Positions 1,643-11,443 of a DNA stretch of 64,000 nt are shown here, piece by piece. The notes below the pieces were generated by a model. The model was not told the DNA's origin. It did no database searches and saw only the letters and a program-made list of their open reading frames with translations. The position numbers were made by a program, and so were the translations under genes. The stretch is from an uncultured Nitrospiraceae bacterium (lineage in GTDB: Bacteria; Nitrospirota; Thermodesulfovibrionia; Thermodesulfovibrionales; UBA6898), in contig CAWEQH010000010.1 of NCBI GenBank assembly GCA_963811165.1, positions 704,001 through 768,000 of the forward strand. Reading direction: 5' to 3'. Numbering within the stretch: the stretch's first letter is position 1; each line of letters opens with the position of its first letter.

Positions 1643-2938
1643 TCACGAACTTTCCTTTAAAAGGGCATCGAGCGGACTCATAGGGACATTTTGAATATCA
1701 CGCAGCACATGGGTATAGATCATCGTAGTCTCTAAGCTCTTATGGCCGAGAAGGTCCTGGATCTCCCTGATGTTGACACCCTTCATAAGCAGGTGAGTTG
1801 CAAAACTGTGCCTCAAGGTATGGACCGTCGCGTGTTTGACAATGCCAGCCTTCTTCACTGCTGTACCTATGGCATCCTGGATGCCCTTGTCGCTAATGTG
1901 GTGGCGTCTGACCTTGCCGCTTCGCGGGTCGACCGAGAGTTTAGCAGAAGGGAAAACATATTGCCATTTCCATTCTTTAGCCGCATTGGGAAATTTTCTT
2001 GCGAGCGCACTTGGAAGATAGACTTCACCGTGTCCAGCTGCCAGGTCTTTATCGTGCAGAGTTTTCGCCCTCGGAAGATGGAGTCGGAGCGGCTCCTTGA
2101 CAGCCTCTGAAAGAATGGTCGATCTGTCCTTGTCTCCCTTGCCGTTTCGGACAACGAGCAGGCCTCCATCGAAGTCGATATCCAGCACCCTCAATCTGGC
2201 GAGTTCCATGACGCGCAGGCCCGAGCCGTACAAGAGCTGTGCAATCAACAGCGACGTACCTGATAAGTGATGGAAGAGCGCTTTCACTTCTTCGATAGAC
2301 AGCACCACAGGTAGTTTTTTCCCTCGCTTGGCCCAGACCATGCCTGAAATATCGCCGAGGTCCCGTCCGAGCACGTCGCGGAAAAGAAACACAAGGGCAC
2401 AAAGCGCCTGATTCTGTGTTGAAGACGAAACCTGTTTACTGATTGCAAGATGGCTCAGGAAATTCTGAACGGCTTCCGGTGTAATAGCCGCGGCAGGGTT
2501 GTCACTTGCGGTCTCCCGCATATATGCGAAGAACCGCTCCGCCCAGTCAAGATAAGAAAGTTCGGTATTGTAGGCAAAGTGTTTGAGTCTAATCAACCGC
2601 TTCATCTCTGCAAGGAGCTTAGGTCTTTCAGAAAGTCGGCCTTCCGGCCTCTCTTTTCCAGACAATGCCTTCAACTTTTCGCCGCCTTTAAAATGGCTAA
2701 GATAGAGGCGCACAGCCTCCCCCGCCTGGCGGACCTGCCAGTCATGGATGTCCTCCTTGGCTTTGAGGGAGTCCAGAAACTCGGCAACTGTAAGATCGAT
2801 ATCTTGTTGTCCCTTCCTGTTGCTGAAAGCAAGGAACTTGCTGGCCCAGATTGCCAGAAAAAGGACGTGTTTTTCGGGAGCTAATTTGTGCGAAAGAAGA
2901 AATTCTTGAAACTCAGGCAAGATCCCGTTGCCGATCAT
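1643..2938 (-). CDS. intI: Integron integrase with N-terminal extension
   Basis: Tyrosine recombinase motifs ([32 protein letters not shown]) plus IntI-specific insert [26 protein letters not shown]...[11 protein letters not shown]; divergent from attC array. Confidence 0.97.
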
Positions 2939-3087: not shown

Positions 3088-3120
3088 AAAAGGGGAACTT
3101 CGTATAGTAATATGTTAAGC
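3088..3120 (+). other. attI: attI recombination site
   Basis: GAACTTCGTATAGTAATAT-GTTAAGC; R box GTTAAGC (3114-3120) is complementary to R'' GCTTAAC of attC1. Confidence 0.8.
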
Positions 3121-5852: not shown

Positions 5853-5941
5853 GCAGAACAATAAAATCGAAGCGACAGGGCATAACCCTGCCGGTTTTCA
5901 ATTCTATTGCTGTTCATGCCCCGCGCCTCATTTTGAGCGTT
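5853..5941 (+). other. attC: attC6 (R' interrupted by IS after GTT)
   Basis: GCAGAAC...AAAAT(C)GAAGCG...CGCCTCATTTT...GTT; the original R' continuation GTTGTAC is at 7752-7758. Confidence 0.88.
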
Positions 5942-7751
5942 GAAGCTGTAGAAAAAGTCAAAAAAGGCTGGAAGAACGCCATTCTGATTTGATAAGATGC
6001 TAGGAGACGGGTTAGCAAGGAGGGAGAGAGAGTGGCGAGATACAAAGAATACGACTATTCACAGGGGAAATTCATACCGATACAATTTGACAAGCAGATA
6101 CTACCGGGGACGTTTGAGCATACCCTTCATTATCTAATCGACAACGAAATAGACCTTTCGATCTTTGATGCGAGATACCAAAACGACGAGACCGGGGCGC
6201 CGGCCTACGATCCGGCGATACTGCTGAAGATAATACTGTATGCCTATTCCAGGGGGATCACCTCAAGCCGGAAGATAGCGCAGTGCTGTGAGGAGAACAT
6301 AATCTTCATGGCGTTGTCGGCAGACACAAGGCCGCATTTCACAACCATAGCGGACTTCATCTCATCGGTAGACCAGGAGATCATAAAACTATTTCTTCAA
6401 GTCCTGTCTGACGTGCGATGCAATGGGGCTGATAGGCAAAGAGATGTTTGCGGTGGACGGCTGCAAGATGCCCTCGAATGCCTCGAAGGAGTGGAGCGGG
6501 ACAAAAGAAGAGCTGCAGGCACAAAAAGAGAAGATGGAGAAGGCGATCCGGCAGATAATCGGAAGGCATCGGGAAATGGATGCGAAGGAGAAAGACAAAG
6601 GGATCATCGAGCAGGAAGAGAAATACGTTGAGACGATGAAAAAGAAGGTAAAGAAGATAAAGGAGTGGCTTGAGGACAACGACGACAAGCCCGGCAAGAG
6701 AGGCAAGCCGATAAAGAGCAACATCACGGACAACGAAAGCGCCAAGATAAAGACCTCGCATGGGGTGATACAGGGATATAACGGAGTGGCGGTGGTGGAT
6801 GACAAACACCAGGTGATAGTGCATGCGGAGGCCTTCGGGGCGGCGCAGGAGCATGATCTTTTAGAGCCGATGATAGAGGGGACGAAGGAGAACTTTGAAG
6901 AGATCGGAGAGGAAGACGTATTTGAGAAAGCAAAGCTTGTAGCCGACAGCGGATATCATACCGAGAAGAATATGCAGATGGTAATGGAAGAAGGGATAGA
7001 CGCATACATAGCGGACACACAGTTTCGGAAGAGAGACCCGAGGTTTGCGGATGTGGATAAATACAAAGAGCGATCCAGGAAAGAACAAAGAGAATTCAAC
7101 GGGACGAAGATGTTATACCGAGCCGAAGGACTTCACGCATCACAGAGGACAAGAAGTTTTGCATCTGTCCTGCGGGGAAGAGACTATATTGTAAAGGCGG
7201 CAATGTGATTATCAACGGATACAAGGCGATGAAGTTCCACGGGCGAAAGACGGACTGCCGGGTTTGTGAAGCAAGGGCAAAGTGTCTTAAATATCCGGAC
7301 ACGAACCGAAGCCCGTCAGGTGTGCTTTTTTCAGGGGCAGGAGACGAGACAGAGCGGACAACGTTTACCGAAAGGATGAAACAAAAGATAGATTCGATAA
7401 AAGGCAGACTCATCTATAACCGAAGACTCGGAACAGCCGAGCCTCCCTTTGCCCATATCAGTCAATACTGGGATTGGATAGATTTACCTTCAGAGGAAAA
7501 CGAAAGGTGAATACCCAATGGCTGCTCTACTGTATTACGCACAATCTCATAAAAGTGCATCGATATGCAGAAGGGTTTGCATAGAAAGAAAAAAAGGAAG
7601 GGCGATGCCTCAGTGAAAGGGCTGTAAAAGAGGATTTAACAACCCCCGTCGATCCAGAACAGCATTAACGGAGAATAAACCGGCAGCTTCAATCGGAGAA
7701 ATACAAAAGAAGATGATGAGGAATCAAAAACAGACTTATTTCTACAGACTC
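5942..7751 (+). mobile_element. IS1182-family insertion sequence
   Basis: Imperfect terminal IRs GAAGCTGTAGAAAAAGTC / GACTTATTTCTACAGACTC; flanking (C)GTT duplication; transposase inside. Confidence 0.9.
6032..7584 (+). pseudogene. tnp: IS1182-family DDE transposase, several frameshifts
   Basis: GAPAYDPAILLKIILYAY..SSRKIA (DUF772-type), AVDG, QGYN, ADSGY, RRLGTAEPPF, RGKRKVNTQW...HNL spread over different frames. Confidence 0.88.
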
Positions 7752-7823
7752 GTTGTACCAAGAAATTAAATGAAATCAAAGACGGCTTTGTCGTCATAAT
7801 CCCGTATCGTCTATAGCAGACGG

Positions 7824-8486
7824 ATGGAAAAAAGGAGGAAGGAAATGGGTAAGTGGGGAAACAATAGGCCTAAGATCGGTTTAATTGTTTTGGCATTTGT
7901 ATTGCCAATTTTTACAGGGTGCGCGTTCTCCGTTGATCGAATAGACCTTTCGTACGATGCGCAGCAGAACGTACAAAAAATGGCCGGAGTTGACAATATC
8001 TCAATAGAAGTAAATGTAAAAGATGTGCGGACGCAGACGGACAGAGTGAGTTCCAAGGGGGTTGCCAACCAAGCAGCTGCGATAATTTCCAACCAGGACG
8101 TATCCAAGCTTGTCAAAGAGGCTATAGAACGAGAGCTGGCGCAACGGGGGTATATGGTTTCACCCGGTCATGTCATCATTATGTGCGACCTGAGCAACTT
8201 CTGGGCGAAGTGGGAGATGGGGTTCTGGGCAGGCAAAGCACACGGGTCTTGTCAGTTTATGGTTAAAGTTCTTGACCAAAAAAGAACGCTCATTTTCTCG
8301 GATATCATCAGTGGAGAATCCACGAAAGATGGCATCCAACTTACGTCAGGCGATAATGCAAAGGAAGTGCTTGAACTTGCTTTAAAAGATGCGATGAAGA
8401 AGCTTTTTCAGACACAAGATTTTTTTGACGCCATAGCTAAAGCGGCTGGCAAAGAGCGAATGGCAAAGTCTGACATAAAAGAATGA
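7824..8486 (+). CDS. Cassette 7 YajG-like lipoprotein
   Basis: Lipobox FTGC; VKDVR, LVKEAIERELAQRGY; real start may be 7845. Confidence 0.7.
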   Translation: MEKRRKEMGKWGNNRPKIGLIVLAFVLPIFTGCAFSVDRIDLSYDAQQNVQKMAGVDNISIEVNVKDVRTQTDRVSSKGVANQAAAIISNQDVSKLVKEAIERELAQRGYMVSPGHVIIMCDLSNFWAKWEMGFWAGKAHGSCQFMVKVLDQKRTLIFSDIISGESTKDGIQLTSGDNAKEVLELALKDAMKKLFQTQDFFDAIAKAAGKERMAKSDIKE

Positions 8487-8562: not shown

Positions 8563-8657
8563 GTACAACAAGCGCATCGAGAGGGACGCGGGAATAGCCG
8601 TCATTCTTTTTCATTCTGGCGTGGTTGCTCCCGCGCTCCTCATGCTTGTCGTTGTGG
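8563..8657 (+). other. attC: attC7
   Basis: GTACAAC (complement of GTTGTAC at 7752)...GCAT(C)GAG...CTCATGC...GTTGTGG. Confidence 0.9.
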
Positions 8658-8718: not shown

Positions 8719-8931
8719 ATGAATACAGAATTTACTGCAATAATGAAACAGGCTGGAGAATGGTGGATCGGCTGGATTGAGGAAATTCCAGGCGTAAACT
8801 GTCAGGAGCGAACCCGCGAAGATTTAATTGAAACCCTTCGTATTACACTTAAAGAAGCACTCGAATTTAACCGTCAAGATGCTATCGCCGCCGTAGGCTC
8901 AGGATACACAGAAGAAAAAATTGCAGTATGA
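8719..8931 (+). CDS. hicB: Cassette 8 short HicB-family antitoxin
   Basis: WWIGWIEEIPGVNCQERTREDLIETL; ATGA overlap with hicA; TATAAT upstream. Confidence 0.88.
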   Translation: MNTEFTAIMKQAGEWWIGWIEEIPGVNCQERTREDLIETLRITLKEALEFNRQDAIAAVGSGYTEEKIAV

Positions 8932-9116
8932 AACGCAGTGACCTGTTGAAATATCTGCGGGCACAAGGCTGTGAATTTATCAGAGAAGGTAGCCGACACT
9001 CTTGGTGGGGGAACCCAAGTCAAAATAAGAGATCATCTGTCCCAAGGCATAATGAAATTGATGATCATCTTGCACGAAAGATCTGTAAAGATCTCGGAAT
9101 AAAACAAATAAACTAA
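8928..9116 (+). CDS. hicA: Cassette 8 HicA-family toxin
   Basis: GCEFIREGSRH...VPRHNEI...ICKDLGI. Confidence 0.92.
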   Translation: MKRSDLLKYLRAQGCEFIREGSRHSWWGNPSQNKRSSVPRHNEIDDHLARKICKDLGIKQIN

Positions 9117-9117
9117 G

Positions 9118-9209
9118 CCACAACAATTTGCTCCAGGCGACGCTGTGATTAGCCGCTTTTTCGTTTTCATCTTTTGTCGACCCAGCGCGCCTGAGCACGG
9201 TCGTTACCC
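9118..9209 (+). other. attC: attC8
   Basis: CCACAAC...TGCT(C)CAGGCG...CGCCTGAGCA...GTTACCC. Confidence 0.9.
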
Positions 9210-9274
9210 TTAGAAATATAGAAAAATGATAATGTATAATGCAGCCAAAGGGTAATTTAACAAAAGGAGTACAC

Positions 9275-9475
9275 ATGTCAAAGGTTGAAGAAATTAAAGA
9301 AGCCATTGACTCATTGCCGGAGCAGGAATATGTCGAGTTGCGGCGTTGGTTATCCGAAAAGGACTGGGCAAAATGGGACCAGCAAATTGCTGAGCATTCC
9401 GATTCGGGAAAACTGGATTTTTTAATCACAGAAGCAAAAGAAGCAAAATCAAATAATAAACTTCGGGAACTTTAA
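9275..9475 (+). CDS. Cassette 9 antitoxin, same family as 1167..1367
   Basis: AAGGAG RBS; MSKVEEIKEAI...WDQQIAEHSDSGKLD. Confidence 0.8.
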   Translation: MSKVEEIKEAIDSLPEQEYVELRRWLSEKDWAKWDQQIAEHSDSGKLDFLITEAKEAKSNNKLREL

Positions 9476-9543
9476 TTGCACCGTTCGACAGATCGCTTCT
9501 GGGAATGTTTCGACCGGCTGCCCGACCCAGTTCAAAAAACGGT
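9476..9543 (+). pseudogene. Cassette 9 truncated ParE/RelE-like toxin (N-terminus only)
   Basis: MHRSTDRFWECFDRLPDPVQKT aligns with the toxin at 1364, then breaks at an IS end; expected attC (GGGTAAC) is absent. Confidence 0.75.
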
Positions 9544-9567
9544 AAAACAGCCTTTTTCTATAGACTC
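9544..9567 (+). mobile_element. Right-end remnant of a related IS1182-like element
   Basis: AAAACAGCCTTTTTCTATAGACTC vs AAAACAGACTTATTTCTACAGACTC (7727-7751); both followed by GTT. Confidence 0.8.
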
Positions 9568-9660
9568 GTTATGTCCAAATAAAATAATGAAAATAATATC
9601 ACTGCGTCGCTTTGTGGTATCATATTTTCAGGTGCCACAGAAACAAATCGAGGTGAAGAA

Positions 9661-9858
9661 ATGAAGACAAAATTAAAGATGATTTACTGGAAGGGTGAGA
9701 AATTTTGGGTGGGGAAATTACTGGATCATCCTGAAATAATGACTCAAGGCGAAACACTAGAAGAACTCGAAGAAAATATGAAAGAAGCCTACATGCTTAT
9801 GACAATGGATGATGTTCCGCCGAAACATAAGATCAAGGAAGTTATTCTCTCGGTTTGA
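9661..9858 (+). CDS. hicB: Cassette 10 short HicB-family antitoxin
   Basis: FWVGKLLDHPEIMTQGETLEELEENMKEAY; GAGGTG RBS. Confidence 0.9.
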   Translation: MKTKLKMIYWKGEKFWVGKLLDHPEIMTQGETLEELEENMKEAYMLMTMDDVPPKHKIKEVILSV

Positions 9859-10055
9859 AGAGAAAAATATTAATTAGAAAGCTCACCACTGCAGGTTGTG
9901 TTTTATTGCGGCATGGTCAGCGTCACGATCTCTATCTCAATCCGAAAACTGGCAAAAAGCAGCCTGTACCACGCCATAACGAAATCGACGAAAATCTTTC
10001 ACGGCATATAATCAGAGAATTGACAGAACAAATTGCTCAACCAGACTCGCAATAA
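9855..10055 (+). CDS. hicA: Cassette 10 HicA-family toxin
   Basis: GCVLLRHGQRHDLY.NPKTGKKQPVPRHNEI; TTG start overlaps hicB stop. Confidence 0.9.
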   Translation: MKRKILIRKLTTAGCVLLRHGQRHDLYLNPKTGKKQPVPRHNEIDENLSRHIIRELTEQIAQPDSQ

Positions 10056-10113
10056 ACGCGGTTTGGTTTTCATTGTTAGTCTCTGCGCTCGCTGGTTAGC
10101 ACGGTCGTTATCT
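10023..10113 (+). other. attC: attC10
   Basis: ACAGAAC...TGCT(C)AACCAG...CTGGTTAGCA...GTTATCT; R'' matches GTTATGT (9568) with one mismatch. Confidence 0.88.
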
Positions 10114-10186
10114 GCAAAATAATATTTGATAAATACATATCAATGAGACATACTAATACAGATATATTATATTGATAGGAGAATTT

Positions 10187-10384
10187 ATGAAGACTACACT
10201 CAACATAGAAGGCAAATTACTTGAAAGAGCATCAAAGTTGACGGGAATTAAGGAAAAGACATCTCTTGTCAGGCTTGGACTTGAAGCCCTTATCGCAAAG
10301 GAAAGCGGCAAGAGACTTGCAAAACTCGGAGGCACTGAAAAGAAATTAGACGTGATACCCCGCAGAAGATCGGCAGGCGCATAA
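10187..10384 (+). CDS. vapB: Cassette 11 VapB-type antitoxin
   Basis: MKTTLNI...LTGIKEKTSLVRLGLEALI...LAKLGG; TTGATA..TATCAA palindrome upstream. Confidence 0.88.
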   Translation: MKTTLNIEGKLLERASKLTGIKEKTSLVRLGLEALIAKESGKRLAKLGGTEKKLDVIPRRRSAGA

Positions 10385-10385
10385 G

Positions 10386-10760
10386 ATGGTTCTTGTTGAC
10401 ACTTCGGTATGGGTCGAACATTTCCGATCCGGCAACATCGGACTTGAAAACCTGTTGAATGAAGGCGATGTTGCTTGTCATCAATTCATCACCGGTGAAC
10501 TCGCATGCGGTAATCTTTCAAACAGAGCTGAAATTCTGTCTCTGTTGCGGGCGCTACCTCTGGCAAACCATGCCGAACACGAGGAGGTAATGCAATTTAT
10601 CGAGAACTATAAACTAATGGGAAAAGGGTTGGGGTACGTTGATATGCATTTGATCGCTTCGGCTGTATTGTCTGGAGTCCCAATCTGGACACTCGACAAG
10701 AAACTCAAAGATGTTTCCTCAAAACTGGGTTTAGACTACCAACAAACGACGGGCAGATAA
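10386..10760 (+). CDS. vapC: Cassette 11 VapC PIN-domain toxin
   Basis: VLVDTSVW, GELACG, GLGYVDMHL, WTLDK. Confidence 0.93.
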   Translation: MVLVDTSVWVEHFRSGNIGLENLLNEGDVACHQFITGELACGNLSNRAEILSLLRALPLANHAEHEEVMQFIENYKLMGKGLGYVDMHLIASAVLSGVPIWTLDKKLKDVSSKLGLDYQQTTGR

Positions 10761-11355: not shown

Positions 11356-11443
11356 ACAGAACAAATGACTCAACCAGATGGCGAATAAGCTCGGCGTATT
11401 TCGCAAAGGTGGCTGCCGCCACTGGTCAGCCATTTCGTCCGGG
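11356..11443 (+). other. attC: attC12, terminal, non-canonical R' (GTC)
   Basis: ACAGAAC...GACT(C)AACCAG...CTGGTCAGCC...GTCCGGG. Confidence 0.8.

Follow-up and report, generated by a model that had tools for sequence, protein, structure and literature searches.

How does a DDE insertion sequence come to lie precisely between an integron recombination site and the cassette that follows it, and what in the target does its transposase read? The window, the whole 64,000-nucleotide stretch from an uncultured Nitrospiraceae bacterium analysed here, holds a sedentary integron, with an integrase gene, successive attC sites and cassette starts that match R'' (Table 1). R', R'', L', L'' and GTTRRRY are the usual box names, and the numbering of attC sites and cassettes is our own. 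Cassette 1 starts with GTTAAGC, matching R'' of attC1, and the cassette start is the exact complement of R'' at 10 of the 11 R'' sites listed; the sole mismatch (GTTATGT where GTTCTGT is expected) is in the cassette after the IS remnant at 9544-9570. The preliminary description had placed the element between attC6 and the start of cassette 7, with no cassette gene hit and the GTT of attC6 retained, and had read the resumed GTTGTAC as the exact reverse complement of the R'' of cassette 7 (GTACAAC); both observations hold, the latter at position 8563. The attC6 site scores 55.4 bits with our attC model R1, built on 27 other, unoccupied attC sites and thus without attC6 itself; the match ends on the last T before the IS, and the bottom-strand fold of the site has a z of -2.3.

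Table 1. Features of the integron array and of the inserted element (window coordinates).
Feature	Position	Strand	Remarks
Integron integrase intI, 431 aa, open frame	1643..2938	-	TIGR02249 398.6 bits (cut-off 265)
Putative attI	3098..3120	+	GTT 3114-3116 starts cassette 1; predicted extent
attC6, R'' GCAGAAC to R' GTT	5853..5941	+	insertion target
Left GTT copy (3-bp target duplication)	5939..5941	+	
IS1182-family element	5942..7751	+	1810 bp, imperfect terminal inverted repeats of ~18 bp
Transposase pseudogene	6032..7584	+	D, D, E motifs present, in different frames
Right GTT copy, original cassette 7 start (GTTGTAC)	7752..7754	+	
Cassette 7 gene, lipoprotein PF03923, uninterrupted	7824..8486	+	
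attC7, R'' GTACAAC at 8563	8563..8653	+	model R1 50.5 bits
Remnant of a related element's right end, with GTT at a cassette start	9544..9570	+	

At the junction, the left flank ends ...TTTTGAGC-GTT, the element runs from GAAGCTGTAGAAAAAG to ATTTCTACAGACTC, and the right flank resumes GTT-GTAC; the same ends are seen in homologues. The duplication had been given as (C)GTT, of which only GTT stands: the C is part of the right end of the IS, because elements with a T before the left GTT still end in CTC before GTT, and one element has TTT/TTT. The insertion had also been placed exactly at the crossover, which is correct for the triplet, but IntI cuts inside it and a 3-bp duplication implies cuts on either side. 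The family profile, the DDE triad, the terminal inverted repeats and the target duplication identify a DDE element of the IS1182 family. Its transposase is frameshifted, with at least three frame changes by tblastn and about five by three-frame translation, all read from the assembled sequence and due to decay or assembly error; the sequencing runs screened contained a share of at most 0.06 of the words. The pieces match NF033551 and PF05598/PF01609, the NF033551 match falling below the cut-off because the gene is broken, and one piece is 91% identical to P0001, an intact relative. Intact relatives encode the full DDE triad in a single ORF and pass NF033551 (281.2 bits for P0010 and 279.2 bits for P0001, cut-off 270); in the homologue alignment (A2) D142 and D306 are invariant and E468 nearly so. 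A search of the plasmid collection gave no relative at 60% identity or more, no relative with a solved structure was found, and the AlphaFold model (pLDDT 52, pTM 0.27) was left out of the reading. About 25 bases inside the left ends lies a conserved extended -10-like motif (TGCTATAAT), which is altered in the window copy.

Whether the placement is a habit of the lineage was asked of its relatives. With the intact natural homologue P0010 we fetched 16 genome and 74 metagenome loci, which yielded 69 distinct left junctions with at least 70 bases of flank, 58 from the main clade and 11 from a sister clade with different inverted repeats (shorter flanks, loci without a left end and duplicate junctions were dropped). 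The flanks were scored with attC covariance models, as the preliminary description had proposed (R1, and R2 built on 11 short sites; matches were paired with junctions by hand). GTT precedes the left end in 56 of the 58 main-clade homologues, and an attC model match ends on the very junction base in 47 (one weak, E 0.22), against 0/11 for both in the sister clade, counts to be read knowing that the loci are related, thus not independent, and that the models, trained on attC sites from the same loci, are biased towards the attC families of their training sets. The remaining 11 main-clade junctions have no attC model match. The contrary pattern named beforehand, most copies at non-attC sites with no fixed offset, did not appear: the insertion point keeps a base-exact offset, at GTT. 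Among 45 complete elements, 41 are flanked by GTT/GTT, one by TTT/TTT and three by mismatched triplets. Likewise, all 15 left ends recovered as DNA relatives follow GTT and 10 adjoin an attC match, two of these weak. A strict attC rule, which is insensitive, accepted 27/58 junctions versus 18/5000 random genome GTT, and a redone flank control accepted 36/58 versus 115/4412 on the same strand and 63/6156 on the opposite strand. An anchored stem score taken alone was unspecific (119/600 random GTT) and was discarded. Generic terminator targeting is ruled out by the fixed GTT offset together with the attC model matches.

We also surveyed 151 genomes of the phylum with an inverted-repeat pattern that did not include GTT, taking further only matches with a CTGTAG or GTGTAG core. 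The 83 ends scored comprise 34 that follow GTT, 33 right ends with GTT on the outer side and 16 others. When restricted to the 61 ends that resemble verified ends beyond the pattern, all 29 left-type ends follow GTT, and the 32 right-type ends have GTT outward (27), a variant (3) or GTT on the unexpected side (2). An attC match adjoins 22/34 of the GTT-preceded ends, and 22/27 outside genome G137. Pooled and deduplicated, 72 of 100 left ends adjoin an attC match; the pooled GTT count is partly circular and hence was not used. Two multi-copy genomes have their left ends mostly at attC (3/3 in G184 and 3/4 in G082). An attC-preferring IS1182 subgroup is thus strongly supported by the observed junctions, and its orientation relative to attC is nearly always the same across the lineage. 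The preference is real and lineage-wide, and apparently undescribed, a known family being combined with a known kind of niche. The habit is lost in the sister clade (L039, L099, L101-L105 and others; ~45% identity), which has NF033551 matches above the cut-off, a similar length and GAGA-type ends but sits in flanks such as AGGGA / TCCCT. A quick tree separates four sister rows from 55 GTT rows, and off-target rows showed no clustering in it (86/500 shuffles as low).

The named hosts are mostly Nitrospirota MAGs, with one Bacillota MAG. At 44-45% identity, a Pseudoalteromonas piscicida relative (44%) has its left end at attC (E 0.0088), and a Catenovulum relative (L117) has a GTT duplication and the opposite orientation; the latter, on a Catenovulum adriaticum plasmid (L117:3869-5326), has as neighbours a maturase fragment of a group II intron and a toxin-antitoxin pair. 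Tandem copies parted by one GTT were seen at five loci (L038, L057, L063, L066, L206) and fit repeated use of one site. Gene-less miniature copies of ~100 and ~220 bp with the same ends are found at the GTT of attC sites or arrayed in tandem beside full elements (L163:1558-1775, L166:966-1064, L038, L057, L197, L198, L206). In the sister clade, the elements at L113:962-1027 and near L114:2109 both start after CTGCT, 13 bases downstream of the GTT closing an attC-like sequence, possibly a second attC-linked habit.

Targeting of attC is not absolute. In genome G137, contig breaks carry 7 left and 8 right ends whose inner sequence is identical; all 7 left ends follow CGTT, none adjoins an attC match and only one has the T-N-A motif discussed below. 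The genome itself has intI and at least five attC sites. The IS ends in G137 show 77-79% similarity to those of L025 and L047, and the identical ends at many sites suggest recent activity of a relative; the transposase was searched for in the assembly and not found, and is probably unassembled. If matched as we propose, two left-right pairs would each restore a plausible single gene, one for a ShlB-type transporter and the other for a restriction-modification fusion; both are probably split genes. Other insertions lie in ORFs (L049, L052, L083), and at L042 the element sits on a gene's stop codon, where the end of the IS provides a new stop that leaves the protein end unchanged. The N-terminal transposase sequence of the off-target copy at L052 is shared by L050, a copy located at an attC.

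These copies bear on the idea that the transposase needs C/T-GTT-purine only, and that the excess of attC reflects selection against gene-breaking insertions, G137 being then what a fresh burst would look like before purging. The identical G137 ends at hairpin-less CGTT sites, two of them probably inside genes, and the insertion at the L042 stop codon agree with this idea. We nonetheless regard it as improbable, given that the host genome of the window (G000) has 3296 YGTTR sites outside long ORFs versus 22 attC model matches; therefore harmless sites alone predict less than 1% of insertions at attC, versus the 47/58 observed. The multi-copy genomes G184 and G082, with their copies at attC, also speak against it.

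The preliminary description had proposed that the transposase recognises the attC hairpin. In its general form, recognition of folded attC as hairpin or cruciform, the arm motif being a by-product of attC conservation, this has several points in its favour: attC sites with very different arm sequence and length are used, low-scoring targets are still enriched in attC, and the family member IS1272 targets stem-loops (PMC4923244, PMC5678879). Against it, hairpin-less targets exist, some mimicking the 3' arm only, several occupied sites are without the AAC of R'', and where IS1272 deletes the stem without duplication, here the hairpin survives with a 3-bp duplication. We therefore consider it rather unlikely; the hairpin claim is weakened by the G137 insertions next to hairpin-less GTT and by several other off-target sites that mimic only the 3' arm, and an intact hairpin with a duplication would point to a duplex target.

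We lean instead, with reserve, towards an IS1182-family lineage that inserts on GTT, mostly that of attC R', with a transposase that likely reads the duplex 3' arm and is likely helped by the attC setting. With DDE chemistry, a 3-bp duplication is read as staggered cuts on duplex DNA. Since the duplication is 3 bp and the hairpin is left whole, the cuts would flank GTT on duplex DNA. The proposed readout would be T-N-A, 7-8 bases, then C/T-GTT-purine on the double-stranded 3' arm of attC. T-N-A, a motif picked after seeing the data, occurs at the same offset in 5/9 sites in or at the end of ORFs versus a 10.2% background (p ~0.001). With an attC 3'-arm matrix, dominated by one short GC-rich attC family, L052, L083 and L003 score above the 99th percentile of genome GTT sites, and the matrix is selective: of 87,622 genome GTT sites, a lenient threshold admits 324, among which 14 are attC. 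Because off-target sites often mimic the 3' arm without a hairpin, duplex arm plus attC context fits better than the hairpin. Among weakly matching targets, attC accounts for 4/10 and 10/17 versus 4/853 and 6/90 of non-ORF sites in the window's own genome, a comparison that sets targets from many hosts against one host genome. Sequence and selection are too little for these weakly matching targets, and therefore true attC sites would add something, a structural or positional boost, possibly extrusion; later enrichment by selection may contribute, cassette junctions being harmless. Readout would be by protein rather than by RNA: the 50 3' non-coding regions of the elements held no conserved internal motif and Rfam gave no match to a guide-like RNA, searches with which a variable guide is compatible. 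An 11-residue stretch of the attC-clade transposase is absent from that of the sister clade.

Could IntI itself place or co-target the element, for example by recombining an IS circle whose junction carries GTT or by attracting the transposase? In favour, it is the core triplet of IntI that is duplicated, and at L155:1561-1591 (G174:C3) a 28-bp footprint of fused left and right ends lies between two GTT, at the place expected of attI and ~450 bp upstream of an intI that is broken. Such a role is nevertheless very improbable: TTT/TTT at L083 shows that what is duplicated depends on the target, some targets are intragenic, intact relatives encode a full DDE triad, and in G184, where no intI passes the cut-off, copies sit at attC.

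The place of insertion does have a consequence for cassette movement. IntI cuts between the A and C of AAC (PMC2811028), and hence the IS is predicted to lie inside the excisable unit of cassette 7. Nothing of R'', the two L boxes or GTT would be lost from the upstream attC, and the IS would form the first 1.8 kb of the excisable unit of the next cassette; in the resulting circle, 2 of the 7 bases of R' would no longer be the original ones. The hitch-hiking suggested in the preliminary description is thus a correct prediction from geometry, from which alone follows that the IS could travel with cassette 7; no moved IS-cassette pair turned up, the same pair behind different neighbours being absent among the examined loci. 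The remnant at 9544-9570 had been credited with the same geometry; it does show a right end and then GTT at a cassette start, but its left side and its attC are missing, and it follows a short truncated ORF.

In a search of papers, as distinct from ISfinder or TnCentral entries, IS1111 elements and group II introns were the only ones seen to target attC. The IS1111-attC group (ISPa21, ISPst6, ISKpn4) is described there as a monophyletic IS subgroup tied to the attC sites of cassette arrays (PMC3001079, PMC11187229), with a DEDD enzyme guided by a seekRNA (PMC11187229), whose insertions lie close to the 5' end of attC and run antisense to the array (PMC3001079). The present lineage is likewise an IS subgroup tied to attC. 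Unlike IS1111-attC, it combines a DDE enzyme, terminal inverted repeats, a 3-bp duplication, the R' triplet at the 3' side and sense orientation, and, unlike the seekRNA-guided elements, shows no conserved non-coding motif in the 3' regions; the element proteins gave no Pfam or NCBIfam match to an IS110/IS1111 DEDD transposase. Group IIC-attC introns (S.ma.I2) are lineage-specific and orientation-specific attC parasites as well (PMC3001079), but retroelements with unrelated chemistry that insert into the bottom strand near the attC 5' end. IS1272 and TnSha1 share the transposase family and insert at hairpin-forming DNA (PMC4923244, PMC5678879); their targets are terminators with no primary consensus, the stem is partly deleted, there is no duplication and both orientations occur. 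In contrast, the present lineage has a fixed GTT, a duplication (41/45 GTT/GTT), a retained hairpin and one orientation, features of which the retained hairpin and the duplication rule out a stem-loop replacing insertion of the IS1272 type.

A DDE transposase that finds attC poses a clean question of target choice, because attC sites share little primary sequence, and the non-targeting sister clade serves as a built-in control. Placement at the junction likely spares host genes. An element landing between cassettes without gene breakage can persist in arrays, may seed deletions like the one at 9544, may break assemblies at cassette junctions and would perhaps move with cassettes. Beside IS1111-attC and group II introns, the lineage would add a third way of parasitising attC, with a chemistry of its own. 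Taken to its full extent, and here we are tentative, this would be a widespread undescribed DDE lineage that has evolved a reader of the attC 3' arm encoded in protein, inserts at the core triplet of IntI while sparing the site, and has in cassette excision and re-integration a second route of spread, driven by the integrase. It would then form a third class of attC parasite, independent of the other two and alone in riding inside the next cassette.

Elsewhere in the array, window positions 8719-10760 hold a run of toxin-antitoxin cassettes (two HicA-type pairs, VapBC and one truncated pair beside the IS remnant), and the last attC (11356-11443) may be inactive, because it ends in GTC rather than GTT. 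The host genome G000, 95% complete, has its 22 attC model matches on contigs C1, C4, C9 and C10, and 11 of these form small clusters at a distance from the integron. On C1, an IS fragment without ends (C1:367071) lies ~550 bp from another attC, and far from the integron a ~50-bp left-end remnant of a related element (C4:685760-685893) directly follows the GTT of a 64-bit attC (C4:685810).
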